Shown here piece after piece: positions 3,978 to 23,113 of a DNA stretch of 64,000 nt. The notes below the pieces were generated by a model. That model searched no databases. It had not been told where the DNA came from and worked only from the letters and a program-made list of their open reading frames with translations. How positions within the stretch are numbered: position 1 is the first letter of the stretch; the number at the start of each line of letters is the position of its first letter. This DNA is from Bifidobacterium sp. (GTDB lineage: Bacteria > Actinomycetota > Actinomycetes > Actinomycetales > Bifidobacteriaceae), in the NCBI GenBank assembly GCA_022739095.1, contig JAIJEI010000001.1, positions 102 through 64,101 on the forward strand, in the 5' to 3' direction. Both the position numbers and the translations under genes were made by a program.

Positions 3978-3978
3978 G

Positions 3979-4023: not shown

Positions 4024-4040
4024 ATACATCTATAGAGAAG

Positions 4041-4081
4041 ACGCTTAGCGGCATTCCTGATATGAGGATACTGCTAAGCGT
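4041..4081 (-). terminator. Hairpin downstream of the VOC gene
   Basis: ACGCTTAGCGG...CTGCTAAGCGT imperfect stem. Confidence 0.5.
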
Positions 4082-4089
4082 GCGGATGT

Positions 4090-4878
4090 TCACACACTCC
4101 TGAATCGCGCCTGGCCGATGGTCACATCGAAGGACTTGCCGGCCGGAACGTCGTACTGCAGTTCGGTGATGCTGTTGCGCTCGCCTTGGACGAATCGCCA
4201 TGCACGGTCCTCGCCTACATTGAGATCGAAGTAGTGGCCGTTGGGCAGAGAATCATCCGTGCCTTCGGTGAGTGCCAGGTCAAACACGTCGGACCAGTGT
4301 GCGGCCACAGCGGCCGGATCAGGCACCTCGAAGAGCGCACAACGAGTGTTCACCTCGCCGATCGCATGCTGGTGCAGCAGTCCGCTTTTCTCATAACGAA
4401 CCAGCTGTTCGGATTCGCTTGCACCCCAATCGATGACGAACGGGTAGCGCAGGCCATGGTCGTCGCCCTTGATCCACAGCAGCTGCCAGCGGATTTCCTC
4501 GCCATCGGCGGTGGTGCGGTTGCCCGGCACGATCTCGCCGAGGTCAAGCCCCTTGGCGACGAGTCGTCCGGCTGCCTGCTCGATGCCATGCACATGCAGT
4601 GCTGGGCGGTAGAAGCCCACATATTCGGGCAGCAGTTCGCCGGCTTCGTGGAAGATAAGACCACGGTCCGGCGTTTCCGACAGTGCTTCCTCACGGCTGT
4701 ACAACGTCAGGAACTCGAGATAGTTGTCGGTGAAGTACGCCAGGGAGTTCTCCGTGCCGTGCCCCACATGCTTGCCGCCGTAGCGCGCGGTCAATCCCGC
4801 GCCGGCAAACGCCTGCTCGGCGGCTTTGAGGTCGTCTACGAATTCGACCGTATGATCCCACGTGAATTGTTGCGTCAT
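4090..4878 (-). CDS. VOC/glyoxalase-like family protein
   Basis: WDHTV, GGKHVGHGTENSLAYF..YLEFL, PFVIDW motifs typical of glyoxalase_3-type proteins. Confidence 0.8.
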   Translation of the reverse strand: MTQQFTWDHTVEFVDDLKAAEQAFAGAGLTARYGGKHVGHGTENSLAYFTDNYLEFLTLYSREEALSETPDRGLIFHEAGELLPEYVGFYRPALHVHGIEQAAGRLVAKGLDLGEIVPGNRTTADGEEIRWQLLWIKGDDHGLRYPFVIDWGASESEQLVRYEKSGLLHQHAIGEVNTRCALFEVPDPAAVAAHWSDVFDLALTEGTDDSLPNGHYFDLNVGEDRAWRFVQGERNSITELQYDVPAGKSFDVTIGQARFRSV

Positions 4879-4893
4879 AATGAGTCCCTGCCT

Positions 4894-5697
4894 TTACTTC
4901 GCGTTGCCGCCGAGTGCCGTGGTGCGTTCGACCGCTGCCAGCACCGCAGATTGTACGGATGCTGCGAACCCGGTTTTGTTCAACGTGTATGCCTCGGTGA
5001 TACCCACGCCACCGGGGGAGTTGTTGATGTTGAGCAGCACTTGCGGCAGTACGTCCTTCTGCTTGAGGAACTCGGTGCCGCCGATGATGGTATCGAGCGC
5101 GATGGCCTTGGCCACGTCGCGGGGCAGACCGGCGAGCACGCCCGCATCCACGTAGGCGTCGATGAAGTGGTAGACGATGTTCGGCGGGTAGAAGCCGGTG
5201 ATGACGTCGATAAGTCGTTCTTCGACATACAGTACCTTGCCGAAGGTGTTGAGAAATGCGTCCACATCCTCGCGCGTGGCATTCGCGTTCAGTGCCGCGC
5301 CGCTGTAGCCGTAGTCCACGGTGGTAAGTGTGTTCGGAATGATGCGTACGACGCGCCACCCATCACCAAGACTTTGTTCGAGCTTGGCGATGGTATAGCC
5401 GGCGACGATGGAGATCACCGTGGTCTTCGCCGGGTCGAAACGCTTTGCCACCGAAGCGGCCACGCCGGCGACATCATCCTGCGGGCGCACCGCGATCACC
5501 ACGATATCGGCATCTGGCGTGTCCGTCGGGGGTGTTAGTTCAGTGCCGTATGTGGTTGCCAGGAATTCGGCGCGTTCGCGTGAGATCTCCTCAACCCAAA
5601 TGTGATCGACCGGATACTCGGCGGACTTGCGTCGCACCGCCTCAATGATGGCGGTCGGCATATTGCCTCCGCCGATGAAGTACAGATTCGCTCCCAT
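4894..5697 (-). CDS. proC: Pyrroline-5-carboxylate reductase family protein
   Basis: FIGGGNM NAD(P)-binding, IAVRPQ, VISIVAG, RIIPNT, SPGG; divergent, possibly a paralog. Confidence 0.82.
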   Translation of the reverse strand: MGANLYFIGGGNMPTAIIEAVRRKSAEYPVDHIWVEEISRERAEFLATTYGTELTPPTDTPDADIVVIAVRPQDDVAGVAASVAKRFDPAKTTVISIVAGYTIAKLEQSLGDGWRVVRIIPNTLTTVDYGYSGAALNANATREDVDAFLNTFGKVLYVEERLIDVITGFYPPNIVYHFIDAYVDAGVLAGLPRDVAKAIALDTIIGGTEFLKQKDVLPQVLLNINNSPGGVGITEAYTLNKTGFAASVQSAVLAAVERTTALGGNAK

Positions 5698-5843
5698 CGT
5701 TGTTCCCTTCTTCTGATGATGGATGAAGATTCATGTCAGTTTCCGTCATACCGTACGAATGCCCGGATCGTCGTTGTTTCTCACGAAACAACTTATAGGT
5801 GTTCCTGATAGGCGCTTCAAGAATTCCGCAATGCCGCGGATAG

Positions 5844-5870
5844 ATAAGACGCTATAAGAAATGTCTGTAA
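5844..5870 (+). promoter_or_regulatory. ATA-N7-ATA-N9-TGTA box upstream of the UroD-like/Liv operon
   Basis: ATA AGACGCT ATA AGAAATGTC TGTAA; near-identical core to the 14161 box; no TANNNT at +36, but TTGACA at 5890. Confidence 0.6.
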
Positions 5871-6056
5871 TCCATCGGTGGCACTCAGCTTGACACGGGT
5901 ATCGGCGCTGCGGTTCGATGACAATTAACGCATGTAGCCCTGCGCCAATCCCACTATGAGCCAACCCGATTGGTTGGTCGTATCAAGGAAGGTGCGGACG
6001 CATCGACACATCCAACAGATCGTCACAGGTCAGTATCAGTAGAAGGGAACCCGAAC

Positions 6057-7100
6057 ATGGCCAATCGTCGCGCCGTCTTCCATGACATCGCCACTCACAA
6101 GTCCGAAACGCCGTACCTGGTCGGTGCCTGGCAGCATCTCGTCGGCCATGAATACGGCGTCGAGGAATTCGCCAATGCCTACATCGACTTCGTCAAGCGT
6201 TGGGATTGGGAGTGGGTGAAGATCAACCCGCGCGCCGTGTACTACGCCGAGGCTTGGGGTTCTCGCTACGACCGCAACGATTATGCCGGATTCGTGCTGC
6301 CGAAGAAGATCAGCGCCGCGATCACCGAACCGGATGACGTGCGCAAGATCAAGGAATTCAACGCTCCCGACAATGAGTACTTCGCCGAGGCCCTCGCCGC
6401 GGCCGCGCTCATCCGTCAGGGTCTTGAGGATCGTGCCGTGCTGCAGACCATCTTCTCGCCGCTGTCCGTGCTGCTGCAGATTGCCGATCTGCCGCTCTAC
6501 CCGGGCGACGATTACGCCACCGCGACGCTCACCGTCGAAGACGTGATCTTCAACCAACCTGAGGTTGCCAAGCTTGCGCTCGCCAATATCGCCCACACGC
6601 TTGCCTCCTACGCGCGTGCGCTGGTCCGTCCCGAATCCGAAGGCGGCGCCGGGCTCGACGGTGTGTTCTATGCGGTCACCGGCACGGTGAGCGAGGACTA
6701 TTTCGACGCGCAGCGTTACCTTGAATTCTCCGGACCGTACGACCGTATCGTGATCGACGCTGTGCACCGCGCCAACCCGGACGCCGTGGTGCTGCTGCAC
6801 ACCTGTCGCGCCGAATCCCATCCGAACTGGTTCGACACGACGGGCGTGGACCTGCTGCAGTGGGATCAGTACCAGCCGGGCAACCCGAAGGCGGACGCCG
6901 ACCTGACGGCCGCGCCGGTCGCTGGTGCCCCGTACGACCTGTTCACGCCGAATGGCGATGTCGAGCAGGTGCGTCGCGAACTGGCCGAGACCATCAAGTT
7001 GCGTGAAGGCAAACCGTTCCTGCTGGCACCGAGCTGCACGGTGCCGACTCCGGCAAGCGATGAGGTGCTGCAGGCGCTGAGCGACGCCCGCGTGGCCTGA
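6057..7100 (+). CDS. Uroporphyrinogen decarboxylase/MtaA-CmuA-like TIM-barrel protein (paralog 1)
   Basis: QTIFSPLSV, GAGLDGVFY, PYDRIV, LLHTC, FLLAPSCT; no RQAGR motif of true HemE; start set by RBS GAAGGGA. Confidence 0.8.
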   Translation: MANRRAVFHDIATHKSETPYLVGAWQHLVGHEYGVEEFANAYIDFVKRWDWEWVKINPRAVYYAEAWGSRYDRNDYAGFVLPKKISAAITEPDDVRKIKEFNAPDNEYFAEALAAAALIRQGLEDRAVLQTIFSPLSVLLQIADLPLYPGDDYATATLTVEDVIFNQPEVAKLALANIAHTLASYARALVRPESEGGAGLDGVFYAVTGTVSEDYFDAQRYLEFSGPYDRIVIDAVHRANPDAVVLLHTCRAESHPNWFDTTGVDLLQWDQYQPGNPKADADLTAAPVAGAPYDLFTPNGDVEQVRRELAETIKLREGKPFLLAPSCTVPTPASDEVLQALSDARVA

Positions 7101-7165
7101 ACCGTTCGTCGGGAGATCCATCCATCCAGACTTCATGATTTTTTCAAAATAGAGAGGGGAATATC

Positions 7166-8335
7166 ATGACCATCAAAACAACCATCCGCACCGCGGTTGC
7201 GGCCGCGGTCACCGTGGGAACGCTGATCGGCGTCTCCGCATGCGGCCTTGGCGGAGACTCCACCAGCGGCTCCGGCAGCTCCGGCGACACCGTGAACATC
7301 GGCGTCATCTACCCGAAGACCGGCCAGTACGCCGAATACGGCAAGCTGTTCCAGCAGGGCTTCGATCTGGCTGTCGCCAAGGTGAACAAGGACGGTGGCG
7401 TCAAGGGCAAGAAGCTGGGCCTCAAGTACTATGACACCCAGTCCGATGCCAAGCAGGACGCCGCCGTTGCCCCCAAGCTCGTGGCAGACAAGTCGATCAT
7501 CGCCGTGGTCGGCGATTACGCCTCGCCCGCCTCCTCGGCCGCTTCGCCCATTTTCCAGCAGGCCGGACTGGTGCACTACGGCTTCAACAACTCCGCACCG
7601 ACCTTCACCGACACCGGTGACCACGTGTGGACCCCGCAGATCGGCCAGGACAAGTACCAGAAGGCCAATGCGGATATCGTGGCCAAGAAGGCCAAGAAGA
7701 TCTCCGTGGTCTACATCGAGAACGATTGGGGCAAGCAGGCCTACCAGTACTTCAAACAGGAAGCCGAAAAGAACGGTACCCAAATCGTGTACGAGTCCAG
7801 CTACCTGCCCGACTCCACCGACCTGTCTCCGATCCTGATTCCGGCGCGCGATGCCAAGCCCGACGCGGTGGTCGATATCGGCTACGGCCCGGACGGCGCT
7901 CTGGTGATCAACACGCTGCGCGACAAGCTGGGTTACACCGGCCCGTACTTCGGCGGCCAGGAAACCAAGGAATTCCTTGACCTCGCCGGCAAGAACGCCG
8001 AGGGCTCGATTATCACCGGTTCATTCTCCGCCACCGGCACCAAGGATGCCAAGGCCCAGCAGTTCGTCAAGGACTTCAAGGCCAAGTACGGCAACAACCC
8101 GGGCAACTTCGAAGTGACCGCCTACCAGGCGATCATCGATCTCGCCTATGCGGCCAACAAGACCGAACCGACTCGTGAAGGCATCCAGAAGGCGTTGCAG
8201 ACCGTAACCGACTTCCCGCTCTATCAGGGCAACGGCGGCACGTTCAAGTTCAACCAGAAGGACCGTCGCGCCGACAACATCGATCCGATTCTGCTCATCG
8301 CCAAGGATGGCAAGTTCGAACAATACGAAGTCTGA
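7166..8335 (+). CDS. Branched-chain-amino-acid-type ABC substrate-binding lipoprotein (LivJ/K-like)
   Basis: Lipobox VSAC; IGVIYPKTG, NKDGGVKGKKL, AVVGDYAS. Confidence 0.9.
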   Translation: MTIKTTIRTAVAAAVTVGTLIGVSACGLGGDSTSGSGSSGDTVNIGVIYPKTGQYAEYGKLFQQGFDLAVAKVNKDGGVKGKKLGLKYYDTQSDAKQDAAVAPKLVADKSIIAVVGDYASPASSAASPIFQQAGLVHYGFNNSAPTFTDTGDHVWTPQIGQDKYQKANADIVAKKAKKISVVYIENDWGKQAYQYFKQEAEKNGTQIVYESSYLPDSTDLSPILIPARDAKPDAVVDIGYGPDGALVINTLRDKLGYTGPYFGGQETKEFLDLAGKNAEGSIITGSFSATGTKDAKAQQFVKDFKAKYGNNPGNFEVTAYQAIIDLAYAANKTEPTREGIQKALQTVTDFPLYQGNGGTFKFNQKDRRADNIDPILLIAKDGKFEQYEV

Positions 8336-8455
8336 TTTCCGCGGCTTTCCCGTGCTCCGCCGACGCTCCTGCCCTACGGTTCCACCGTATAGGGCCGGGG
8401 GCGTCGGCGAGGTATGGAAGAGGCATCGTAAATCGCAAATGAGGTAACACGCACA

Positions 8456-10270
8456 ATGTTTGATGTTCTTTTCGCCGGACTGATTCACGGCAGCGCCTAC
8501 GCGCTGGTCGCGGTCGGCATGTCGCTGATCTTCGGCGTCACCAACGTGGCCAACTTCGCCCAAGGCTCCATCGTGGCCGTGGGCATGATGATTGCCTGGT
8601 GGCTCGGCTCAACACTGGGATGGGGCATCGTGCCCACATTCGTGGTCGTGGTCGTAGTCACCGCGCTGCTGGGCCTGGTCATGAACGTGGCGGTCATCGC
8701 CCCGCTCGAGGGCCGCAAGCCGATCGCGGCGCTGCTCGCCACCATCGGCGTCGGGCAGGTACTCGACAATGGCCTGCAGATCATTTTCGGGCCGCAGACC
8801 CGCCCGTTCCCGAAACTGCTGGACACCTATAACCTGCAGTTCGCCGGCGTGCGCTTCGGCACCTCGGACATTGTGATGGTGGTGCTCGCTGTCGTCTCGA
8901 TGCTTGGCTTGTGGGCGTTCCTCAAATTCGGCAAGGCCGGGCAAGCCATTCGCTTCACTTCTCAGGATCCCGAGGCCGCCATGCAGATGGGCATCCCGGT
9001 CAAGACCATCCGCAATCTCTCCTTTGTGATCGGTTCCGTGCTCGCCGGCGTCTCCGGTATTTTCGTGGGCCTGTTCAACGGCAACATCAACCCGATGAAC
9101 GGCGGCACCATCGGCATGACCGCATTCGTAGCGGCCACAATCGGTGGTCTGGGATCCATTCCGGGCGCCGTGGTCGGTGGCCTTGTGCTCGGTGTGGTCG
9201 AAGCGTTCGGCATCTCCCTGTTCGGAGACGGTACGCATGATCTCATCACCTTCGGTGCGCTGATCATCATCCTCATCATCAAACCGCAGGGCCTGCTCGG
9301 ACCGAAGACCGACGTGAGGTCCGAACCGCTCACCGGCACGTTCCTCGGTGGTGGCCGGGCGATCACGCTGCCATGGTGGGGTAACCTTATCGGCGCGGTG
9401 ATGCTCGTCGCCACCCCGTTCTTCTTCAACGACTACCTGTCCGGCGTGGGTACGCAGGTCGCCATCTACGCCATAGCCGCTGTGGGGCTGACGTTGATTT
9501 CCGGTTCCGCCGGCCAGACGATTCTCGGCATGGCCGGACCGTTTGCCGTCGGCTCCTATGCCTCCGCGATTCTGACCACTCAGGCGCACTGGCCATTCCT
9601 CGCGGCCTTGCTTGCCGCCGGCGTGATCGCGGCCTTCGCCGCCTCCGTGCTCACCTTCCCGGTGTGGAAGCTCTCCGGCCACTATGTTGCCATCGCCACC
9701 ATCGGCGTAGGCGCGGTGATGGTGGCCATCATCCGCCTTGCAGAGCCATTGACCAAGGGCTCGCTCGGCATCCAGGGCATTCCATTCCCGAAGGTGTTTG
9801 GCTTCACGCTGTACACGCAGCAGATGATGTATCTGCTTGATGTGATCGTGCTGCTCATCACGCTGGTGATCGTCACATGTATTCGCGCCACGCATCTGGG
9901 CCGTGTGTTCGAGGCCGTGGGTGCCGATCGTGAGGCTTCGGAGGCGTTGTCGATTCGCACCGGTGCCTACAAGGCACTCGCTTACGCATTGGCCGCGTTC
10001 TTCGCCGGTCTCGCCGGTTCGCTGCTCGCCCATCAATACACTTACATCGATCCGACGATTTTCAACTCGAATATGTCGATCCTGATTCTGACCATCATCG
10101 TGCTTGGCGGCATGAACTCACCGCTCGGCGCGGTGCTCGGCTCAATCGTGCTCATCGGCGCACCCGAGCTGCTGCGATTCGCCACCGATGCCCGCATCCT
10201 GCTGTACGGCGTACTGCTGGTGCTCGTCATCCTGTTCCGTCCTCAGGGCCTGTTCGCCCGGAAAGGCTGA
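8456..10270 (+). CDS. Fused LivH-LivM ABC permease
   Basis: YALVAVGMSLIFGVTNVANFAQG (LivH half), then LTLISGSAGQ and IIVLGGMNS (LivM half). Confidence 0.9.
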   Translation: MFDVLFAGLIHGSAYALVAVGMSLIFGVTNVANFAQGSIVAVGMMIAWWLGSTLGWGIVPTFVVVVVVTALLGLVMNVAVIAPLEGRKPIAALLATIGVGQVLDNGLQIIFGPQTRPFPKLLDTYNLQFAGVRFGTSDIVMVVLAVVSMLGLWAFLKFGKAGQAIRFTSQDPEAAMQMGIPVKTIRNLSFVIGSVLAGVSGIFVGLFNGNINPMNGGTIGMTAFVAATIGGLGSIPGAVVGGLVLGVVEAFGISLFGDGTHDLITFGALIIILIIKPQGLLGPKTDVRSEPLTGTFLGGGRAITLPWWGNLIGAVMLVATPFFFNDYLSGVGTQVAIYAIAAVGLTLISGSAGQTILGMAGPFAVGSYASAILTTQAHWPFLAALLAAGVIAAFAASVLTFPVWKLSGHYVAIATIGVGAVMVAIIRLAEPLTKGSLGIQGIPFPKVFGFTLYTQQMMYLLDVIVLLITLVIVTCIRATHLGRVFEAVGADREASEALSIRTGAYKALAYALAAFFAGLAGSLLAHQYTYIDPTIFNSNMSILILTIIVLGGMNSPLGAVLGSIVLIGAPELLRFATDARILLYGVLLVLVILFRPQGLFARKG

Positions 10271-10276
10271 TTTGCC

Positions 10277-12109
10277 ATGACTGATTCCGAGACCTCATTC
10301 TCCACAGTCGATGCTGTGACCGGCATCGACATCGACAACGAACGCCTGAACAACGCGGACGATCTGGCCGAATACTCCGAAAAGCACCGCAAGGCCGTAC
10401 TCGGTGCGCCCGTGGTGCTGCGTGTACGCGAGCTCGACAAGTCCTTCGAGGGTCTGCACGCCGTCAACAAGGTTTCTTTTGACCTGCATCAGGGCGAGGT
10501 CATCTCCATCATCGGGCCGAACGGTTCGGGCAAATCGACCACAATCAATCTGATTTCCGGGTTCCTGACCCCCGATTCCGGACTTATCGACCTCGCCGAT
10601 GAACCGGTCGCCGGACTGAGCTCCGCAGACATGTCCGAACGAGGACTGTCGCGCACCTTCCAGAACGGTCGTGTGTTCGGCGGCCTCACCGTCGACGAAA
10701 ACATCAACCTTGGCTATCACAAGCGACTGGTTGCGGCCCGTCCGTTCAAAGGCCTGCAGAAATATCCGATCGTGCGTTGGCTGCCATTGCTCGCCGAAAC
10801 CGGCGTGGCATTGGTGCCCGGACCGAAGGCCCGTCGCGAGGCGAACGAGGTGAACATCCGCGTGGGCCGTGAAATCGACCGCTTCCGCGAACGACTCGGT
10901 ACGCGCCAGCAGGACCTTGCCTACACGCTGTCATACGCGAACCGACGCCGTACCGAAATCGCCCGCGCCCACATCAGCGAGCCGAGGATTCTGCTGCTTG
11001 ACGAGCCGACCGCCGGCATGAACCAGTCGGAAACCGCCGAGGTACTCCAGCAGCTGCAGTACCTCAAAGTGCAGGGCCACACCATTCTGCTGGTCGAACA
11101 CAAGATTGACCTGGTCACCGCACTGTCCGACCGTGTGCTCGCAATGGATGGCGGCCGCATCATCGCGGAAGGCGCCCCGGACGACGTACGTAACGCCCCG
11201 CAGGTGGTCGAGGCGTACCTCGGCAAGCGGCGCGAAGTGAACCAGACCCGCGTCACCGGGCAGTCGGATGTGCTCGCGATGCAGAACTCCATTGAAGCGT
11301 CTCAGGCCACCGGTGCCATAGCCGAAGTGGAGGAACGTGACGCCGATGCCGAGCAAAACAAGGCCGAGACGTTGAAGGAAGACAAGGCGGCGTTGCTTGC
11401 CCTCGATGATGTGAACGTGTATTACGGGCAGGTCCATGCGTTGCAGAACGTATCGATTCGTGTGCCCAAGGGCGCCATCGTTTCCCTGCTCGGCGGCAAC
11501 GCCTCCGGCAAATCGACCACGATGAAGACGATTCTGGGCATCAACCACCCGAAAACCGGCTCGCTCTGGTATCAGGGACAGGACATCACCAAACTTCCCA
11601 CTCGTAAACGTGTGGAGACGGGCATCGCCGCCGTGCCTGAAGCGAGGCGCGTGTTCCCGCAGATGACCGTGCAGGAGAACCTGCTATCCGGCGCATATAC
11701 GCGAAAAGACAAAAATGGCATATCCACCGATCTGGAAGCCATGTACGAGCGTTTCCCGCGTTTGAAGGAACGCCGTACACAGCAGGCTGGCACGATGTCC
11801 GGCGGCGAGCAGCAGATGCTTGCATTCGCGCGAGCTTTGATGAGCCATCCGAAGATCATCTGCATGGATGAGCCCACGATGGGTCTGTCGCCCAAGCTCG
11901 TCGAGGACGTGCTCGAACAAATCGCGCGTCTGCGTGACGAACTTGGCGTATCCGTGCTTATGGTCGAGCAGCAGGCCGAACTGGCCCTGTCGATCGCCGA
12001 CTACGGCTATGTGCTGCAGAACGGGCGCATTCGACTGCACGGCAAGGCCAGTGATCTGCTCGGCAACGCACAGGTGCAGGAAGCCTACTTGGGAGGAGCG
12101 AAACAATGA
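10277..12109 (+). CDS. Fused LivG-LivF ABC ATP-binding protein
   Basis: Two ATPase domains: GPNGSGKST/LLDEPTAG and GGNASGKST/MSGGEQQM. Confidence 0.9.
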   Translation: MTDSETSFSTVDAVTGIDIDNERLNNADDLAEYSEKHRKAVLGAPVVLRVRELDKSFEGLHAVNKVSFDLHQGEVISIIGPNGSGKSTTINLISGFLTPDSGLIDLADEPVAGLSSADMSERGLSRTFQNGRVFGGLTVDENINLGYHKRLVAARPFKGLQKYPIVRWLPLLAETGVALVPGPKARREANEVNIRVGREIDRFRERLGTRQQDLAYTLSYANRRRTEIARAHISEPRILLLDEPTAGMNQSETAEVLQQLQYLKVQGHTILLVEHKIDLVTALSDRVLAMDGGRIIAEGAPDDVRNAPQVVEAYLGKRREVNQTRVTGQSDVLAMQNSIEASQATGAIAEVEERDADAEQNKAETLKEDKAALLALDDVNVYYGQVHALQNVSIRVPKGAIVSLLGGNASGKSTTMKTILGINHPKTGSLWYQGQDITKLPTRKRVETGIAAVPEARRVFPQMTVQENLLSGAYTRKDKNGISTDLEAMYERFPRLKERRTQQAGTMSGGEQQMLAFARALMSHPKIICMDEPTMGLSPKLVEDVLEQIARLRDELGVSVLMVEQQAELALSIADYGYVLQNGRIRLHGKASDLLGNAQVQEAYLGGAKQ

Positions 12110-12861
12110 GCGCAATCAACGGAAACGAGACAGCACTTCGCACAGCGGTGGTCACCGGTGCCGCCGGAGGAGTGGGCGGTGCGCTGGTGCGCACACTGGC
12201 CGCCTCCGGTGCCTGGCATGTCATCGCCGTGGCCCGAAAACAAGCGGACGTGGATGAGCTGAATGCCATAGATCATGTCGAAGCGCATCTGCTTGACCTG
12301 CTCGATGCCGACGCCCTTGAGAAATGGGGTGCAGGAATCGCCGAACGTGAAGCATCGAACGGAGGTGTTGACCTTCTGGCCAACGTCGCCGCGGTGGCCG
12401 TTGTCGGTTCGGTTGAGGAGACCAAGAACGCGGATTGGGATGTGACCCTGCGTACCAATGTGGTGGCACCGGCCGTGCTGAGCCGTAGCCTATTGCCTGC
12501 GTTGCGCGTTGCGCATGGTTCCGTGGTGTTCGTCAATTCCGGTGCCGGTGAGCGCCCCATCGTGAACCATTCCGTATATGTGTCCTCGAAGCACGCGCTT
12601 CGCGGATTCGCCGGTTCACTCAGACTCGAGGAATCCGTCGACGGCATACGCGTGGCCACCGTGTATCCGGGCCAGATCGCCACGAAAATGCTGCGTGGCA
12701 TCGATGAACGACTCGGCGTGGAATTCAACGGAGAGGATTACATTCAGCCGCAAACCGTGGCGGACACCATCATCTGGATTGCGAACGCCGGGCCGGATGT
12801 GCATATCACCAATATCGACTTGCGGCCGCGCCAGGAAGTCTCCGCAAAGTTTAATGTATGA
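12106..12861 (+). CDS. Short-chain dehydrogenase/reductase
   Basis: TGAAGGVG, YVSSK catalytic motif; ATGA overlap with the upstream gene. Confidence 0.88.
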   Translation: MSAINGNETALRTAVVTGAAGGVGGALVRTLAASGAWHVIAVARKQADVDELNAIDHVEAHLLDLLDADALEKWGAGIAEREASNGGVDLLANVAAVAVVGSVEETKNADWDVTLRTNVVAPAVLSRSLLPALRVAHGSVVFVNSGAGERPIVNHSVYVSSKHALRGFAGSLRLEESVDGIRVATVYPGQIATKMLRGIDERLGVEFNGEDYIQPQTVADTIIWIANAGPDVHITNIDLRPRQEVSAKFNV

Positions 12862-12914
12862 CAGTGGCAATCAAGTATTGCAAGTATTGCCGATACCCTT
12901 CCCGAGGAGGTACA

Positions 12915-14123
12915 GTGCCCGCAGCAGCAACCGTAGTGTCCGAAACCGCATCCTGTTCGGTACCCGTGACACTCTCCGATTCCCTGAACCTGGATTTGCA
13001 GGAATGGTACCGCTGGTTCCACCGCCATCCGGAACTGTCTTATAAAGAGTTCAACACCACGGCGCGTATCCGCGAGATTCTGGAATCACACGGCATTGAA
13101 ATCCTCGACTCAGGGCTCAACACCGGTGTGGTGGCTGTTGTGCGTGGCGCAAGCGCCACACCCGTTATCGCCTTGCGCGGCGACATCGACGGATTGCCTA
13201 TCACCGAGAACACCGGGCTCGACTACACCTCGGAAAACACGGGCGTGATGCACGGGTGCGGCCACGATTTCAACCTCACCGTGGCGCTCGGCGCGGCGAT
13301 TCTGCTCAATGAACGGCGTGACACGTTGCCCGGCACCGTCAAGATCATTTTCCAGCCGGCCGAGGAGGGGCGTGCCACCGCCCAGCGGCCCACCGGTGCC
13401 GTACAGGTGCTGAACACCGGTGTACTCGACGATGTCGAGGCATTGTTCGGTACACATGACGCGGCCGGTCCGGTTGGCGCCATCCTCATACGCGAGGGCG
13501 GCATCACCGGAGCCGTCGACAAGTTCCAGGTCACCATCCACGGCAAGGGCGCACACGCGGCCGAACCGGAAGACGGCATCGACCCGATCACCGTGCTGAC
13601 GAATGTGGTGCAGGGATTGCAGGCCGTCATCGGGCGTAATCTTGATCCTCGCCATCCACGAGTATTGTCCGTCACGCATGTCGAGGCCGGCAGCTCGTGG
13701 AATGTGATTCCGCAGTACGCCTTCTTCGAAGGCACCGTGCGCACCACCGAACCGCAGGATCGGGTTCTCGCCAAAGAGCGGGCCGTCGCCATCATCAACA
13801 ACACGGCCGCCGCCTATGGCGCCACTGCGGACGTCTCATGGTTCTTCGGCTCACCTTCGGTGTTCAATGACACCGGATGGACCCGCATCGGGCGGGAGAT
13901 CATCGCCGAACAAGGGCTTGCCGTGGGTGAGGACCGTCCTCAGCTGGGCGGCGAGGATTTCTCGTATTATCTTGAACGCAAGCCGGGTCTGTTCGTACAT
14001 ATAGGAGCCGGTCAGACCGGTGCCGCACACGGCCCGACGTTCCGTCCAGACCCGGCCGCCATCGGTTCCGGCGTACGTTTCCTTACCGCCATCGCATTGA
14101 GGGCGTTGGAGGAATTGCAATAG
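12915..14123 (+). CDS. M20D amidohydrolase (YxeP/SndA-like N-acyl-amino-acid deacylase), paralog 1
   Basis: FHRHPELS, RGDIDGLP, MHGCGHD, FQPAEE, GGEDFSYY; GTG start chosen after RBS GAGGAGG. Confidence 0.88.
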   Translation: MPAAATVVSETASCSVPVTLSDSLNLDLQEWYRWFHRHPELSYKEFNTTARIREILESHGIEILDSGLNTGVVAVVRGASATPVIALRGDIDGLPITENTGLDYTSENTGVMHGCGHDFNLTVALGAAILLNERRDTLPGTVKIIFQPAEEGRATAQRPTGAVQVLNTGVLDDVEALFGTHDAAGPVGAILIREGGITGAVDKFQVTIHGKGAHAAEPEDGIDPITVLTNVVQGLQAVIGRNLDPRHPRVLSVTHVEAGSSWNVIPQYAFFEGTVRTTEPQDRVLAKERAVAIINNTAAAYGATADVSWFFGSPSVFNDTGWTRIGREIIAEQGLAVGEDRPQLGGEDFSYYLERKPGLFVHIGAGQTGAAHGPTFRPDPAAIGSGVRFLTAIALRALEELQ

Positions 14124-14150
14124 ACGAGAGGCCTTGTATCATTTGGGTTG

Positions 14151-14214
14151 ATATCAGACAATAAGAAATGTTTGTATCCGCACGCAAGTGTTACGGGGTT
14201 TCATTTTTTACACT
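14151..14214 (+). promoter_or_regulatory. ATA-N7-ATA-N9-TGTA box plus -10 TACACT (14209)
   Basis: ATA TCAGACA ATA AGAAATGTT TGTAT; -10 begins 36 bp after the T at 14173. Confidence 0.72.
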
Positions 14215-14296
14215 GATTACCGTATGAATATGAACGTCCGCCGGCATTCCCGTACTTCTGATGGGACGGCGGCACGACACTGAGGGGAACAATTTA

Positions 14297-15592
14297 ATGG
14301 CGAGGGATTTCGTTACTGCGGCGATTCACGGCGGCTATGACCGTGCGGCCAATGGAGAGGCTGTGAATCCGCCGATCTACGCCAGCGCGGCGTTCGACAT
14401 GATCAGCGCCGCGCACGGTGATGCGTTGGCTGCCGGCGAAGCCGAGGGCTTCTCATACTCGCGTGTGGCGAACCCCACCGTAGACGTGCTCGAACGTCGT
14501 TTGGCGGAACTTGAGGGCGGTGTGGGCGCGGTGGCCGTCGCCTCCGGCATGGCGGCGGTGTCATTTGCCCTGTTGTGTGCCGCCGAGGGCGGTGGCCGCA
14601 TCATCTCGCCGACCAACCTGTATGGTGCCTCCGTCGATGCGATGGAGACCTTCTTCCCGCAGTTCGGCATTCATGCCGATTTTGTGCGTGACATCAACGA
14701 TCTCGATGAGGTCGCCTCGAAGATCGGACCGGACACTCGTGCCATCTTCGCCGAATCCGTGGCGAACCCCTCCACCGAAATCACCGACATCGAACCGTTG
14801 GCGGAGCTCGCACACCGCAACGGCATTCCACTGATCGTCGACAACACTGTGCCTACTCCGTATCTGCTGCGTCCCATCGAATTCGGTGCCGACATCGTCG
14901 TGCATTCCACCACGAAGGGCATCACCGGGCATGGCAACGCCATCGGCGGCGTCATCATCGATGACGGAAACTTCGACTGGGCCAATGGCAGGTTCCCGCA
15001 GTTCACCATGCCCGAACTGGTCGTCAGCGACGAGCGCAAGGGCATCGAGCACAGCTTCGTCAGCAAATTCGGCCGCGAAGCATACATCCGCCGCATACGC
15101 ATCAAATACCTGCGCACCTTTGGTGCGGTTCCCAGCCCGTTCAACGCCTACCTGTCGATGGTGGGACTGGAAACGTTGGCCGTGCGTGAACGCCAGGAGG
15201 TAGAGTCCGCCACGCGCATCGCCGAATACCTCACCCATGCGCCGCACGTGCTCAAGGTCAACTATTCCGGTTTGGGCAACACCGGGCAGTACGGGCTGGT
15301 CGCCAAATACTTCCCGAAGGGAATCGGCACAATACTGTCATTCCTCGTGGATGGCGACGAAAACAACGTGAGGCGTATCCTCGATGGAACCAGGGTATTC
15401 TCCTACGTGCCGAACATCGGAGACTCACGCTCGCTCATCGTAGACCCGGCACGCATCACCCACCGCGAGGTGCCTACCGAATACCGTCTGGCCGCAGGTG
15501 TGAGCGACAACCTCATCCGCCTGTCCGTCGGGCTGGAGGGAACGGACGACCTCATCGCCGATCTTGATCAGGCGATTGCCGGGGCGTACTGA
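14297..15592 (+). CDS. metY: O-acetylhomoserine/O-acetylserine sulfhydrylase family PLP enzyme
   Basis: YSRVANPT, ASGMAA, HSTTKGITGHG, NIGDSRSL, LIRLSVGLE. Confidence 0.87.
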   Translation: MARDFVTAAIHGGYDRAANGEAVNPPIYASAAFDMISAAHGDALAAGEAEGFSYSRVANPTVDVLERRLAELEGGVGAVAVASGMAAVSFALLCAAEGGGRIISPTNLYGASVDAMETFFPQFGIHADFVRDINDLDEVASKIGPDTRAIFAESVANPSTEITDIEPLAELAHRNGIPLIVDNTVPTPYLLRPIEFGADIVVHSTTKGITGHGNAIGGVIIDDGNFDWANGRFPQFTMPELVVSDERKGIEHSFVSKFGREAYIRRIRIKYLRTFGAVPSPFNAYLSMVGLETLAVRERQEVESATRIAEYLTHAPHVLKVNYSGLGNTGQYGLVAKYFPKGIGTILSFLVDGDENNVRRILDGTRVFSYVPNIGDSRSLIVDPARITHREVPTEYRLAAGVSDNLIRLSVGLEGTDDLIADLDQAIAGAY

Positions 15593-16021: not shown

Positions 16022-16163
16022 ATGGAATCAATACGAGGGGGATTCGTAGATGCAGGTACCGGCAAACCGGACATTGCCTGTCAATGTTGGACCGTTAGCG
16101 ATGTAGGGGGAATATCGATGCGGATTATCTCGGATTATCTATCCGGGGGGAAAGGAAAATGCG

Positions 16164-17337
16164 ATGAGCGTTTTCTCTGATCGGTTGGAACGGGTTAGAC
16201 ATGATGCTGCTCGACTCGGCATTGATGTGACAATTTCAACCAAGACAAGGCAAGACATGACTGAATAGACATGATGCTGCTCGACTCGGCATTGATGTGA
16301 CCGTGATGACCCATTCCACGGATTTTCGTTATTTGACGGGATATCCATATTGGTGCGATGAACGTTTATTGGCGTTGGTAATTCCACAGGAACATGCACC
16401 GTTTATCATCGCCAATCAGTTATATCGTCTGCAGGTCGACCCGTTGGAGATTGCTGACAAGGTGTACTGGCGTGATGGAGAGGACCCGTATGCAGCGTTG
16501 TCTGATCATCTTGCCGAAATCGGTGTGAAATCTGTACAACATATTGCGGTGGAGGATACTGCGGCAGCTATGACGGTGTTTTCGTTGCAAAACCATTTTG
16601 GGAATATCCACTACTCGCTTGCTTCGGCATTGATTAATCCGTTACGGCAAGTCAAGGATTCGTCGGAAATCAAATTACTCCAAGAAGCGGCCAATCGGGC
16701 AGAACAAGCATTACAGGCCACACTGTCACGTGGCACCGAATGGATTGGGCATACAGAGCGTGAGTTCGAACAGGAGCTTCAGCATCAGTTGCAGTTAGCG
16801 GGTGCTCCGGGAAGTGGTTTGGTGGCTGTAGGAGCCAATGCCGCGCAGCCGCATCATGTTGTTGATGGCACGCCTATCAAAGAGAATGATTTGTTGCTTG
16901 TGGATTATGGTGCTGAATTCCACGGTTATCATTCCGACGAAACCCGTACGGTATTCTTCGGTGAGCCTAGCAAAAAGTTCTACGAGGTGTATGACATAGT
17001 GCATGAAGCTTACCAGCGTGGCATCGCTGCAGCACATGTTGGCAATACGTTGGAGGACGTGGATATCGCTGCCCGCGCATATACCGAACAGCATGGCTAC
17101 GGTGAATACTTCACGCATCGGGTCGGCCACGGTATCGGTCTGGATACCCATGAGGGATTTTCCGTCAACACCAGTGTGAAAGATCCCATTGTCAGCGGCA
17201 ACGTATTTTCTGTTGAGCCAGGCATTTACTTGTCTGGCGAATTAGGCGTACGCATCGAGAGCTTGGTACACGTTAACGACGAGGGCCTGCCTGAGTTACT
17301 GCACCATCTGCCAACTGAACTTCGCATCATCAAATAA
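16164..17337 (+). pseudogene. Xaa-Pro peptidase (M24) frameshifted by a 70-bp duplication/insertion
   Basis: ATG 16164 with RBS gives MSVFSDRLERVRHDAARLGIDVT, then stop at 16268; removing 70 bp joins it to VMTHSTDFRYLTG; M24 motifs DYGA..SDETRT, HRVGHGIGLDTHE, EPGIY, GVRIES. Confidence 0.85.
16196..16301. repeat. Perfect 36-bp direct repeat separated by a unique 34-bp insert
   Basis: TAGACATGATGCTGCTCGACTCGGCATTGATGTGAC at 16196-16231 and 16266-16301. Confidence 0.95.
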
Positions 17338-17401
17338 TTCGTCAATACTCCAATCGCATGCATGGCATGCATACTCATGGAACATAATTAGGGGGAGGGC
17401 C

Positions 17402-18045
17402 ATGAAATCCACTATCACAACATCCATTGCAGCCGTACTGGCGCTGGGATTAACCGTCGGATTGGGAGGTTGTGGAACAGACAATGCCGCCGGTACTTCC
17501 AACGGGAAGAAAGATGAACAGCTTTCTGGCACGGTATCCGTGGCTATATTTGGTGGAAGTACAAGCAGCTGTTACAGCAATACGTGAAGCCTGAATTCCA
17601 CAAAGTTGCGCCAAATGTCAAGATTGTTTATACGGAAAGTATCAATTCAAACGATTACATTGCTAAAGCCATTGCCGAAAAGAATTCCAATAAGGGCACT
17701 TTTGATGTGTTGATTACAGGCTCAACGGGCACCGCACAATTGGAACAGTCCGCCAAATTGGCGAAACTCGATGCCGAGGACATCAGTAATCTCGCTAACC
17801 TCAAATCAGAATACAAAGACGACCAATACTTCGCCCCTCAGATTTACAGCGCAATCACTCTTGCCTACAACACTGACAAGATCAAGGACGCGCCTACCTC
17901 ATGGGATGTGCTGTTTAGCGACAAATACAAAGACAAAATGGGCGTGATGTCTAACCTAGAGCAATACTGGGCGTTCGCCGCTGCCTCCACACAGACCAAG
18001 AAGCCTCTTGACGAAAACTGGAAAATCGCAGATATCGTGAGGTAG
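17402..18045 (+). pseudogene. Polyamine-type ABC substrate-binding protein, frameshifted and truncated
   Basis: Lipobox LGGC; frame change near 17555 (FGG / YKQLLQQYVKPEF); LAYNTDKI..PTSWDVLF; ends prematurely. Confidence 0.75.
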
Positions 18046-18049
18046 ATCA

Positions 18050-19099
18050 ATGGCATACGTCAGTCTTCGAAATTTGTCTAAATCATATGGCGATAATAGG
18101 GTACTGGACAGCCTTGATCTTGACCTTGAAAAAGGGCATTTCCTCACCCTTCTGGGATCTAGTGGATGCGGCAAATCCACTACGCTGCGCCTGATTTGCG
18201 GGCTATTGAAACCTGATTCCGGCACGATCGAACTCGCTGGGCGTGATATAACCCGGATGCCTGCAAACAAACGCAACACAATCTTAGTATTCCAAAGCTA
18301 TGCGTTGTTCCCTCATATGACGGTCGCGCAGAATGTTGCCTATGGCTTGAAGCGGCATCATGTCAATGAGAGCGAGATTCAACAGCGCATCAGCGAAATA
18401 CTGTCGATTACACAGTTGAAAGGACTGGGTGACAGATACCCGGGAGAGTTGTCTGGCGGACAGCAGCAGCGCGTGGCGCTTGTTCGTTCCTTGGTGCTCC
18501 AGCCCGATTTGTTGCTATTGGATGAGCCGTTGAGCAATCTGGACGCCAAATTGCGCAATGAGATGCGAATTGAAATCAGACAATTACACGAGAGGTTGGG
18601 CCTTACCACCATCTTCGTTACGCACGACCAGCAAGAGGCCTTTTCGGTTTCCGATGACATCGTGTTGCTGAACAAGGGCCGTGTCGAGCAGCAGGGGACG
18701 CCCGAGGAGTTGTTCAACCATCCACGTAATGCATTTGCCGCTGACTTCCTCGGCGTGAAGAACCTGTTTCGAAGGAAGTATACGAACGGAACCTTCGCAA
18801 CTGAGGAAGGCGTTGTGTTCCCACTTCATCTTGCAACAGGGAAAGATCCTGCGTACGTAGGGATACGTCCATCCTCGATTATGATCAATCCTGTTGAAGG
18901 CCAAGTGGATTATCGCTTTAAGGCGACGCTGACGATAGCTACTTATCAGGGCGAACAGGCGGAATGCCGATTCGATGCTCACGGTAAGGAGCTTATAGCA
19001 GCCGTCCCATCCACAACATTCGCCTCTGATGACATACGAAGAGGAGACGAGATTGAAATTGGCTGGAAAGACAGTCAGCTAATTCCACTGGAGCGGTAA
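18050..19099 (+). CDS. PotA/FbpC-type ABC ATP-binding protein (no permeases adjacent)
   Basis: GSSGCGKST, VFQSYALFPHMTV, LSGGQQQR, LLDEPLSNLDAKLR, C-terminal TOBE-like region. Confidence 0.88.
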   Translation: MAYVSLRNLSKSYGDNRVLDSLDLDLEKGHFLTLLGSSGCGKSTTLRLICGLLKPDSGTIELAGRDITRMPANKRNTILVFQSYALFPHMTVAQNVAYGLKRHHVNESEIQQRISEILSITQLKGLGDRYPGELSGGQQQRVALVRSLVLQPDLLLLDEPLSNLDAKLRNEMRIEIRQLHERLGLTTIFVTHDQQEAFSVSDDIVLLNKGRVEQQGTPEELFNHPRNAFAADFLGVKNLFRRKYTNGTFATEEGVVFPLHLATGKDPAYVGIRPSSIMINPVEGQVDYRFKATLTIATYQGEQAECRFDAHGKELIAAVPSTTFASDDIRRGDEIEIGWKDSQLIPLER

Positions 19100-19155
19100 C
19101 ACCGTGATGAAATGATTGGGCGCAGGATTGTCTACATGACGGGCTTGCACCAAAG

Positions 19156-19219
19156 ATGCAATAGGCCGGGTTGGCCATCATCGCCATGATGAGATGATGG
19201 CCAACCCGGCCTATTGCAT
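19156..19219. repeat. Perfect 27-bp inverted repeat (terminator-like hairpin)
   Basis: ATGCAATAGGCCGGGTTGGCCATCATC / GATGATGGCCAACCCGGCCTATTGCAT with a 10-nt loop. Confidence 0.9.
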
Positions 19220-19693
19220 TTCGTTATATTCAGCACGATCCGTGCATCACATGTGGCAGGCGCGTTGGCACCGTGGTGCGGGTGCGTCTGCGTGGATGTA
19301 TCACGATGGGCTGGGACATGCTGCCCCATCCGAGAGGCACGAAGACGATTGAATCCGCGGTTACGTGGTCCGTGGGTGACTTGGATTCCGGGCTGTTCGT
19401 AGGCAGTCCGTCCAGGCCAAGGAATGTGGATATCTTTCCCCATATCGACATCGTGCTCGCCCCCGTCGGCTATCGCCGGCCTCTGTGCACCGGTCGGTTC
19501 GCGCCGAACTTCGGCGTTAGCATCATCATAGGGGAGCGCGCGCAACGATGCCGCGGCGTGGCTAGTCGTTTTGCGGATGACGGCCCATACACGCAATTTA
19601 TGACGTGACATGGTGAGGCATCTTAGTGAGATGTCTCAGCGAGCCGGATGACATGGTGCCGACCTTGGCGGAGCCAAGCACGGCAACGGATTG

Positions 19694-19757
19694 ATAGAAG
19701 CGGATAACCAACGTCTATAGGTCGGGGAGCGTTTCCGGTCGTTTGGAATAGTATATT
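19694..19757 (+). promoter_or_regulatory. ATA-N7-ATA-N9-TATA box plus -10 TATATT (19752)
   Basis: ATA GAAGCGG ATA ACCAACGTC TATAG; 36-bp spacing conserved. Confidence 0.72.
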
Positions 19758-19912
19758 GTGAAACCGGCTGCCGGATAATACGTCGGCGTGCGCCGCATGT
19801 GTCATGGTTGGGACTTGACGGGCGGCACACAGGGAAAGAGCACATCACATATGCGTCGGCATCATATTCGTCGCGGCCATGTGAGTGCACATACATGAAC
19901 ATGGGGGAGACC

Positions 19913-20608
19913 GTGCTGCAACTATCCGACCTTGGGTACAGAGTCAAGGGCCGCACCATCCTGGACGGCGTGGACCTTACGGTGAACGCCGGCGAGACAG
20001 CTGTGATCCTTGGGCCTTCGGGCGTGGGCAAATCCACATTGCTGAAGAACATCACGTTCCTTAAGCGGCCTGATCGGGGCACGGTTTCGCTCGACGGCCA
20101 CAGCGTGACGGCACCGAACGTCAGTTCGGCCGACGTATTGCGACTGCGCAAGGCAATAGCCACGGTATTCCAGACCTATCCGCTGTTCAATCATCGGACG
20201 GTGCTGGAGAACATCGTCGAACCATTGCGCCTCGTACACGGCAATGACCGGCATCAGGCGGAACAGATCGCTCAGAGCAATCTTGAACTGTTCCGCCTGG
20301 GGGACAAAGGCGACGCTATGCCGCGAGAATTGTCCGGTGGCGAGAAACAGCGCGTGAGCATTGCCCGCGCGCTCGCGGCAAAACCCAAGGTCGTGCTGTT
20401 CGACGAGCCGACGTCCGCACTTGACCACGAACTGGTCGGTGAGGTCTGCCAGATGGTCCGCACCTTGGCGGACAAGGGCATCGCCAATGTGGTGGTGACG
20501 CACGATATCGACTTCGCGCGTCGCCTTGATGCCGCGGTATATGAACTCGATCAGGGTGTGCTGCACCGGTTGAGCGGCGTCGACGAATTCGTCGAGTCGC
20601 ACAGCTGA
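19913..20608 (+). CDS. Polar amino-acid ABC ATP-binding protein
   Basis: GPSGVGKST, LSGGEKQR, FDEPTSALD; GTG start after GGGGGAGA. Confidence 0.88.
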   Translation: MLQLSDLGYRVKGRTILDGVDLTVNAGETAVILGPSGVGKSTLLKNITFLKRPDRGTVSLDGHSVTAPNVSSADVLRLRKAIATVFQTYPLFNHRTVLENIVEPLRLVHGNDRHQAEQIAQSNLELFRLGDKGDAMPRELSGGEKQRVSIARALAAKPKVVLFDEPTSALDHELVGEVCQMVRTLADKGIANVVVTHDIDFARRLDAAVYELDQGVLHRLSGVDEFVESHS

Positions 20609-20679
20609 ACATCAAATATACCGCACTCGCGTATATACCGCACATACTCACCAACGTTTTAAGAGAAGGGACTCCTATC

Positions 20680-21540
20680 ATGACCATCACCACACGTACA
20701 CGCCGCTCGGCACGCAATTGGAAGCGCTCCATCGTCGCCTTGACCTGCTCGATCGCAGCGCTTGTCTCACTCGCCGCCTGCGGTGGCCAAGGTGCATCCG
20801 CCGGTGCGGACTCCGGGGCCAAGACCATCAACATCGCTGTGGCGGCGAACTCCAAGCCGCTGAGCTACACCGACGACAGCGGCCAGCTCGCCGGCTATGA
20901 GGTCGATGTGCTCAAGGCCATCGACAAGGATCTTAATGACTACACCTTCAAGTACGAGGCAGTGGCCGATGACGCGGAAACTGTGGGTATTGACTCTGGC
21001 AAGTACGCACTGATCACCGGTGGCTACTTCAAAACCGATGAGCGAGTCAAGAAGTACCTCATTCCGGACGACACCACCGGCATCTCGCTGATGAAGGTGT
21101 ACACGCTGCCTTCGCGCACCGACATCAAGTCGCTTGACGATCTGCATGGCAAGAAGGTCGCGCCGATCTCACCCGACGGCGGTGTGAACAAGCTCGTCAC
21201 AAAGTACAACGCCGAGCACCCGGACAAGGCAATCGACGTGACCCATCAGGACAACATCACGATGGCCGCGAACTTCCAGGGACTGGTCGACAAGAAATAC
21301 GATGCGGTGATCGAGCCGGAGCAGAGCTTCGACGTGAACGCGATCCGTAAGAGCCTGGGTGTGAAGTTCCGCGCCACCGAACCGGTGGAAGTGGATCGTC
21401 AGTACTTCCTCGTCTCCAAGAAGCAGCCCGAATTCTTCAAGGAACTCAACACGGCCATCACCAAGCTCAAGGATGACGGCACCTTGAAGCAGCTGGCCGT
21501 CAAGGACTACGGCGAGGACGTCTTCAAGTACGACAAGTGA
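20680..21540 (+). CDS. Amino-acid ABC substrate-binding lipoprotein (TcyJ/K-like)
   Basis: Lipobox LAAC; GYEVDVLKAI; LKDDGTLKQL. Confidence 0.87.
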   Translation: MTITTRTRRSARNWKRSIVALTCSIAALVSLAACGGQGASAGADSGAKTINIAVAANSKPLSYTDDSGQLAGYEVDVLKAIDKDLNDYTFKYEAVADDAETVGIDSGKYALITGGYFKTDERVKKYLIPDDTTGISLMKVYTLPSRTDIKSLDDLHGKKVAPISPDGGVNKLVTKYNAEHPDKAIDVTHQDNITMAANFQGLVDKKYDAVIEPEQSFDVNAIRKSLGVKFRATEPVEVDRQYFLVSKKQPEFFKELNTAITKLKDDGTLKQLAVKDYGEDVFKYDK

Positions 21541-21625
21541 TGGGTCTGCCGCACGGGGAACGTGTGCCGCGTAACGCACATAGCGTGCAAAAAACACCGA
21601 AAATACAAGGAAATGTGAAAGGAGA

Positions 21626-22354
21626 ATGGCCGTGGATTTCGCATACGTGATATCCTTGATTTCGGCATTCGTGGCGAAACTGCCGTACACGCTGCTCATC
21701 GTCGTGGGATGCTACGCCGTGGCGTTCGTCCTGGCCTACCTGATTCTGCGTGTCAGGGTCGATCGGTTGCCGGTGCTGTCCACACTGCTGGACATCTACG
21801 TCTCCTTCGTGCGTTGCGAGCCGATCGTATTGTTGCTGTTCCTTATCTACTTCGGCCTGCCACAGCTGCTGTTCGGTTTCGGCATCGATATCAGTTCGGC
21901 CAGCAAAACCGCATTCGCCTGCGTCACCTTGGTGTTCTTCAACGCCGGATGGCTGAGTGAGATTTTGCGCGGTGCCTACCTGAGCGTGACGCCCGACCAG
22001 TTCGAACTCGCCGACTCACTCGGTTATTCCAAGGGTCAGCTGTGGCGACGCACGTTGCTGCCGCAGATTATCGGCATCGCCATCCCCGATCTTGGCAACG
22101 CCGCAGTCGATCTGCTCAAGGACACTTCGCTGCTGTACACGATTGGCATGATCGACATGATGGGTCTCGCCTCGATCAAGGTGGCGAACAACTACGGCGT
22201 ACATCAGTCAGAGGTGTATCTGGCGGTCGCCTTGGTCTATTGGGCCGCCGCGTTGGTTATTGAAGCAGTGATTTATCTGGCCAAACGGTCCAACCGATAC
22301 TACCGGGTCATTGATGCGCTTTCGCGCGACCGGACCGGCATCGCACGTGTGTGA
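21626..22354 (+). CDS. Amino-acid ABC permease (TcyL-like)
   Basis: YVSFVRCEP, SEILRGA, LLKDTSL. Confidence 0.87.
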   Translation: MAVDFAYVISLISAFVAKLPYTLLIVVGCYAVAFVLAYLILRVRVDRLPVLSTLLDIYVSFVRCEPIVLLLFLIYFGLPQLLFGFGIDISSASKTAFACVTLVFFNAGWLSEILRGAYLSVTPDQFELADSLGYSKGQLWRRTLLPQIIGIAIPDLGNAAVDLLKDTSLLYTIGMIDMMGLASIKVANNYGVHQSEVYLAVALVYWAAALVIEAVIYLAKRSNRYYRVIDALSRDRTGIARV

Positions 22355-22411
22355 GCGCAGACGGTCGGGAATGGGCGAACGAGATAGACGACTGAGTCAA
22401 GACAGGAACGA

Positions 22412-23113
22412 TTGACAATGCAATTCTTTGGATACTTTCTCCAAATACTGGGTGTGGTGCCAGCCGTGCTACTGCGGGCTGTGGCGATTCTCGCAATTGG
22501 ACTGGTACTGGGCACGCCGATCGCACTTGCCCTGCGTGCACATGTGCCCGTGCTTGCCCAGCTGCTGCGCTTGTACACCTCGTTCTTCCGCGGCACCCCC
22601 ATACTGGTGCAGCTGCTGTTCTGGTACTATCTGCTGCCGCAGTGGTCGTCCTCTCTGCTCAATACGGTCGGCTTCCATGTGAGCAAGAATTCCGTCAGCG
22701 CCGATGTGGTGCTCATCTTCACGTTTGCGTTGGTCTATGCCGCATACCTGCAGGAGACCGTGCAGGCATCGCTGGCCTCGATCGATCCCAACCAATTGGA
22801 ACTGGCTGATTCGCTCGGCTACACACGCTGGCAGAAGGCAATACACATCATCATCCCGCAAGCGGTCGTGTATGCGTTGCCGAACCTGTTCAACCAGTTC
22901 CTGAACATTCTCAAGGCGCTGTCGATGGGCTTTACCATTGCCGTGATCGACCTGTTCGCCAAAGCGAAACTCATCGCGGGCCTGAACGGCGACTATATGG
23001 CGTCGTACAGTGCCACTGCACTGGTCTACTGGCTGGTGTGCGGTGTGCTGTTCCTGCTCATGAACTGGTACTTGAAGCGACGTGACGCCTCGCTGGTCGA
23101 AGCGCGATTGTAG
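22412..23113 (+). CDS. Amino-acid ABC permease (TcyM-like)
   Basis: YTSFFRGTPILVQL, IIIPQA. Confidence 0.87.
   Translation: MTMQFFGYFLQILGVVPAVLLRAVAILAIGLVLGTPIALALRAHVPVLAQLLRLYTSFFRGTPILVQLLFWYYLLPQWSSSLLNTVGFHVSKNSVSADVVLIFTFALVYAAYLQETVQASLASIDPNQLELADSLGYTRWQKAIHIIIPQAVVYALPNLFNQFLNILKALSMGFTIAVIDLFAKAKLIAGLNGDYMASYSATALVYWLVCGVLFLLMNWYLKRRDASLVEARL

Follow-up and report, generated by a model that had tools for sequence, protein, structure and literature searches.

A spacer-sized insert with a target duplication in a Bifidobacterium peptidase gene, a probable scar of off-target integration by the resident type I-C CRISPR system

An interrupted peptidase gene and the source of its insert

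The window, by which we mean the whole stretch of 64,000 nucleotides analysed here, contains an M24 Xaa-Pro peptidase gene that is interrupted close to its start (Table 1). An exact 36-bp direct repeat with a spacing of 70 bp encloses 34 bases whose sequence is unrelated to the flanks, and the 70 extra bp shift the frame, which reads MSVFSDRLERVRHDAARLGIDVT-ISTKTRQDMTE from the ATG at 16164 and then stops. A preliminary description of this DNA had reported a perfect 36-bp duplication around a 34-bp insert and a stop at 16268; both copies were reproduced at the same coordinates, and the reading frame ends there. As judged from the remaining frame, re-initiation at 16297-16306 would cost the peptidase 21-24 residues.

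Table 1. Features of the peptidase scar and of related loci in the same assembly
Feature	Position	Strand	Remark
M24 Xaa-Pro peptidase, 5' fragment	16164..16268	+	23 native codons, 11 from the insert, TAG at 16266-16268
Copy 1 of the 36-bp target duplication	16196..16231	-	leader-distal pseudo-repeat in array orientation
34-bp insert	16232..16265	-	exact copy of C12:7160-7193
askB start codon brought by the insert	16257..16259	+	here opens only Met-Thr-Glu-stop
Copy 2 of the 36-bp target duplication	16266..16301	-	leader-proximal pseudo-repeat in array orientation
Mimic of the resident leader/repeat junction	16296..16306	-	TCACG/GTCACA vs TCGCG/GTCGCA, 9/11 bases
Rest of the peptidase, 346-codon frame, PF01321 + PF00557	16297..17337	+	separated from its own start
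Second scar	C12:5861-5949		exact 28-bp duplication, 33-bp insert (or 27+34), in a decayed ATPase-like gene
Self-matching array spacer and its prophage protospacer	L009:34-65 and L101:6746-6777		perfect match, TTC PAM

The insert occurs only once elsewhere in the genome (34/34 exact), at a donor site that spans the gap between askA and askB and the first three askB codons of the aspartate-kinase locus. This donor is native in relatives, being found 34/34 with the same flanks in G090 and 33/34 in G095, and 12 of the 150 other genomes of the genus match the insert at the DNA level, over the donor stretch only; AskB itself is 93-97% identical to AskB of named Bifidobacterium species. The match between insert and donor ends sharply on both sides, with microhomology at neither junction, and terminal repeats were not found in the insert. 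A phage or plasmid source was rejected, because the insert had no match among 50,697 phage records and, among 72,556 plasmid records, one partial 26-nt match that is not meaningful (E=0.9). The search for an origin that had been proposed earlier thus succeeded in the genome's own chromosomal askA-askB DNA and gave nothing meaningful for phages or plasmids, nor does the insert match an end of a mobile element, such as an insertion sequence (IS), or a multicopy sequence.

An uninterrupted form of the gene exists. In the 90% cluster of the protein, six of 15 members read through the site (five of 367 aa and one of 383 aa), and P0127 is identical in a protein comparison to the first 23 plus the last 345 residues that the interrupted gene encodes, so that the window carries the derived state and the 36 bp are an exact duplication of pre-existing non-CRISPR DNA. 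The expectation of the preliminary description that removal of the 70 bp restores the M24 N-terminus is therefore borne out by P0127 as the product of an empty allele, and the comparison of alleles that it called for gives the same answer at the protein level for P0127 and the five others; DNA of the empty peptidase allele was found neither in the genome contigs nor in the 150 genus genomes or metagenome contigs. Seven cluster members of 343 aa might also carry the insert but were discounted as evidence, since their length may reflect the choice of start codon; most of them are ENA calls, and they have amino-acid variants in common with members of 367 aa.

The resident type I-C system and the insertion site

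The assembly (G000), which is metagenome-assembled, comprises 2.12 Mb in 299 contigs and is 81% complete. The preliminary description had asked for a CRISPR system in the lineage, and a complete type I-C system resides in this very genome: contig C173 encodes cas3, cas5c, cas8c, cas7, cas4, cas1c, and cas2, all of which exceed their NCBIfam cut-offs, with cas4, cas1c, and cas2 intact and cas1c the only Cas1 gene found in the assembly. On the same contig, an array whose repeat measures 33 bp and whose spacers are 35, 36, and 32 nt long runs off the contig end. Its third spacer (32 nt) matches exactly a resident prophage on C139 (integrase, terminase, portal, major head, tape measure, and endolysin), where the protospacer is followed by GAA, i.e., TTC on the 5' side in array orientation; the PAM and polarity of the resident system are thereby fixed from its own genome, and they agree with TTC as the PAM reported for Bifidobacterium type I-C in the accessible part of PMC7284854. 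The prophage is matched by the genome's own spacer although cas3 and the Cascade genes look intact, and this self-match could be explained by an anti-CRISPR, by silenced interference or by a mixed population. Elsewhere, contig C248 (L103:1910-2006) carries an orphan I-C-type repeat-spacer-repeat unit, with a 32-bp repeat variant and a 33-bp spacer without a match in the genome, immediately downstream of a gene labelled metK-like from its translation.

The donor in the aspartate-kinase locus is likewise directly followed by GAA (TTC 5' on the minus strand), as is the protospacer in the prophage. The PAM that the preliminary description had suggested looking for is thus present, outside the insert and in canonical polarity; TTC occurs at 1.7% of positions, and the donor PAM sits in a GAA-GAA-GAA run that allows several registers. 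In the orientation that this PAM dictates, the target starts with a junction that shares 9 of 11 bases with that of the resident leader and repeat (p=2.8e-4 genome-wide for a window chosen post hoc, and 2.8e-4 to 9e-3 over eight window sizes), the opposite target end gives p=0.50-0.94 against the same junction, and the insert lies with its PAM-adjacent end towards the leader-like side. The length of the insert, which has clean junctions and comes from an unrelated source, is also that of a spacer: 34 nt is the modal type I-C spacer length in the genus (87/210), next to 32, 35, and 36 nt in the resident array.

Over the whole repeat, 16 of the first 33 bases of copy 2 are those of the resident repeat in register, and gapped global similarity between pseudo-repeat and resident repeat is not significant (p=0.15). 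We also scored the target against genus profiles built from arrays recovered at 19/25 I-C, 8/9 I-G, 19/25 I-E, and 13/15 II-C loci, where nine of 12 I-G loci were taken (three with internal stops were omitted), three II-C arrays were left out, and a one-base shift was applied to two repeat boundaries. In these 48 comparisons the resemblance of the target to the I-C profile, which includes the genome's own array, had p=0.0012 for the junction and p=0.0019-0.0045 for the whole repeat in register; the corresponding values were 0.03-0.12 for I-G, 0.12-0.82 for I-E, and 0.71-0.84 for II-C.

A second scar and the genome-wide control

The whole 2.12-Mb assembly was scanned for exact direct-repeat pairs of at least 12 bp, with at least 20 bp between them and at most 500 bp apart. 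Only seven of 609 such pairs enclose an exact copy of distant DNA, namely the peptidase scar, a second scar, one array spacer, and four rows from one tandem-repeat element (C132/C199). The insert of the second scar is identical to the genome's own tilS DNA (C112:648-680), and its empty allele is present in G095 and in all four runs from one study. The scan admitted inserts of 20 bp up to about 490 bp, yet the two donor-matched inserts outside the array are 33-34 nt long, which is unexpected under generic repair or assembly error.

The second scar has neither a TTC PAM nor likeness to the I-C junction, so not every scar in this genome fits type I-C. Its 61-bp unit, the G as first base of its insert, the donor context GAC/G (one base off GAAG), and the score against the I-E profile (p=0.0024) suggest from sequence that its geometry fits type I-E. 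An I-E cas1 or I-E repeat was not found in the 81% complete assembly, and I-E systems occur in 39 of the 151 genus genomes searched. Only 1.3 kb separates the donor of the peptidase scar (C12:7160) from the place where the second scar was inserted (C12:5861). Priming by the prophage-matching spacer finds no support, the G090 map placing the prophage flank (1,331 kb) far from the two donors (194 and 619 kb) and from the region of the peptidase target (~881 kb).

A mismatch-tolerant scan returned 21 units. Three further units among these were compared with relatives, of which C187:3867 was rejected as a tandem palindromic element and C268:17072 as common to relatives; C158:4576 was also set aside because it reads as a tandem REP-like unit. 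At C56:4831 (L194:332-436), the third unit compared, a 33-bp duplication with one mismatch surrounds 39 bp in an in-frame 72-bp unit; with no donor, and no homologue in three relatives, it is probably a protein repeat.

Origin and consequences of the peptidase scar

We consider it very likely that the peptidase scar arose by off-target integration by some Cas1-Cas2, as the preliminary description had supposed and as the donor, the PAM, the resident CRISPR system, and the empty allele support, and likely that the enzyme was the resident type I-C Cas4-Cas1-Cas2 acting in a full-site reaction. The steps of such an event we infer as follows. A chromosomal askA-askB fragment would have been captured and trimmed by Cas4 at the TTC/GAA PAM to 34 bp; its non-PAM end would have attacked the mimic of the leader-repeat junction at 16301/16302, and its PAM end the other strand, at a distance of 36 rather than 33 bp; gap filling would then have duplicated the 36 bp. 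The 36-bp spacing probably follows from a target that lacks the internal spacing signals of the repeat.

This spacing is the main point of disagreement with the resident system, because the duplication exceeds the resident repeat by 3 bp and type I-C repeats in the genus are 31-33 bp long. The preliminary description had called 36 and 34 bp CRISPR-like, which holds insofar as the pair is I-G geometry and 34 is the modal I-C spacer length, and fails for the resident repeat of 33 bp. In our view the 36-bp duplication weakens the assignment to a subtype and not the mechanism, as equality with the repeat length is a feature of on-target integration. According to PMC6895254, the second cut is set by spacing elements within the repeat and shifts when these are altered; with the second cut so placed, slippage on a target that is not a repeat is plausible and would account for the extra length here. 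In P. furiosus, by contrast, off-target integration pairs kept the repeat length of 30-31 bp (PMC6698737), whereas the duplication in the peptidase gene is 3 bp longer than the resident repeat.

Since all eight type I-G arrays recovered in the genus have 36-bp repeats, with spacers of 34-40 nt, an I-G Cas4/1-Cas2 that was lost or left unassembled and that worked at its normal 36-bp spacing stays a rival, albeit an unlikely one. Several genus I-G repeats begin with GTCTC, near the GTCAC of the target, I-G Cas4/1 reads NAA (TTN) in another species, and both the 81% completeness of the assembly and the second scar, which may record an earlier system of a different subtype, speak in its favour. 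However, the assembly contains no cas4g/cas1g gene and no I-G repeat, the PAM reported for Bifidobacterium I-G (TAN) does not fit the donor, the target likeness is weak (p=0.03-0.12, as compared with 0.001-0.005 for I-C), and 34 nt belongs to the low tail of I-G spacer lengths (12/89). A chimeric path during library construction or assembly, which would have put askB sequence into the peptidase contig of a metagenome-assembled genome, draws on the 299 contigs, the 81% completeness, and the proximity of the donor to the target of the second scar, 1.3 kb away on C12; we regard it as improbable, because an assembly graph is misjoined where k-mers are shared and both junctions lack microhomology, because both donor-matched non-array inserts are 33-34 nt long, and because spacer length, PAM, polarity, and leader-junction likeness are not jointly predicted by it.

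Template switching or error-prone repair, in which 34 nt were copied from a distant template and synthesis resumed 36 bp back, seems to us just as improbable. It needs no fixed duplication length, so that 36 instead of 33 bp poses no problem, and it could draw on the 8-mer AGACATGA, which the preliminary description had noticed in both insert and repeat and which is real: a random 34-mer shares an 8-mer with the 36-bp repeat with a chance of 2-4%. Template switches usually use microhomology at the junctions, yet here the shared 8-mer is kept twice and lies away from both junctions, and the PAM, the polarity, and the likeness to the leader would all be coincidental. A remnant of an IS was a further suggestion of the preliminary description, an insertion with a target duplication being the general signature of integrases; descent from an IS or another mobile element is hardly credible now, since the inserted piece derives from a core housekeeping locus in single copy and has neither terminal repeats nor a phage or meaningful plasmid match, and the identity of the donor effectively refutes it.

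Integration by the resident type I-C enzyme can also be compared with what is known from other systems. Off-target integration has been seen in Escherichia coli when Cas1-Cas2 is overexpressed and in experiments in vitro, and its natural frequency is described as unclear (bioRxiv 10.1101/148544). In the neo-CRISPR of the E. coli I-E Cas1-Cas2 (Nivala, Shipman and Church 2018, Nat Microbiol 3:310, via PMC11788318, PMC7054753, bioRxiv 10.1101/148544, and PMC6698737), as here, a spacer-sized fragment was integrated outside the array and a chromosomal stretch of about the repeat length was duplicated; the peptidase scar differs in being natural and independent of overexpression, in its probable origin from a type I-C system with Cas4, in knocking out a gene, in having a self-derived donor traced together with its PAM, in a duplication that exceeds the native repeat by 3 bp, and in a pseudo-repeat that has no hairpin and is unlikely to yield a crRNA. 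Likeness to the leader-repeat junction or to the repeat, as seen at the scar, also marks the off-target sites of Cas1-Cas2 from Streptococcus thermophilus II-A (PMC6895254) and P. furiosus (PMC6698737), where spacing elements within the repeat set the second site; those targets were plasmids in vitro, unlike that of the scar. The I-C Cas4-Cas1-Cas2 of A. halodurans integrates in a polarised manner that puts the PAM-adjacent end on the leader side, as found in the scar, whose target is coding sequence and not an array; off-target integration is not mentioned in the text searched (bioRxiv 10.1101/2022.05.30.494039).

The phenomenon as such is thus already described, and the peptidase scar would be an instance from nature of an error documented chiefly in laboratory work. 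Full-text searches of a collection with few subscription papers returned no report of natural off-target scars of type I-C or in Bifidobacterium. The scar combines a donor, a PAM, polarity, a junction mimic, resident machinery, and an empty allele, it shows CRISPR adaptation disrupting a gene, and it offers an in vitro substrate for studying how type I-C enzymes choose the first site without a leader and how they measure the repeat length. Its significance is limited by the number of events, one or two. Tentatively, and with slightly more doubt than confidence, we suggest that this one chromosome bears the scars of two integrases, the resident I-C, whose second cut slipped to 36 bp, and an I-E no longer seen in the lineage; if this is true, such scars are readable fossils of CRISPR subtypes that the lineage once carried, and off-target integration is a natural gene-inactivating mutagen in gut commensals.

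As a CRISPR unit the scar is likely inert. The predicted hairpin of the pseudo-repeat in array orientation is weak (-3.6 kcal/mol, z=0.74) compared with that of the real repeat (-16.5 kcal/mol, z=-3.8), so that it would hardly offer Cas5c the processable hairpin of a functional mini-array, and because the pseudo-repeat also lies antisense to the peptidase gene, a self-targeting crRNA is unlikely. Related strains tell more about the loss of the gene. Four runs from one study (X1-X4), with 8-10% of words and representing other strains, include none that spans the scar, and they carry two deletions (16109-16377 and 16692-18326) that remove the peptidase start, most of the gene, and the next gene; P0124 and P0128 are peptidases of related strains in which parts of the gene are deleted. 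With the gene largely deleted in these strains, its loss appears to be tolerated, and the scar was likely tolerated for the reason that the peptidase is dispensable. The low-GC stretch around the peptidase gene is decaying in several lineages. On either side of the gene, positions 8456-15592 and 17584-23113 of the window hold an accessory cluster whose translations read as amino-acid ABC transporters, an amidohydrolase, and a sulfhydrylase-like protein, and positions 102-15592 are 83-89% identical to G090, compared with 95-97% for core loci.
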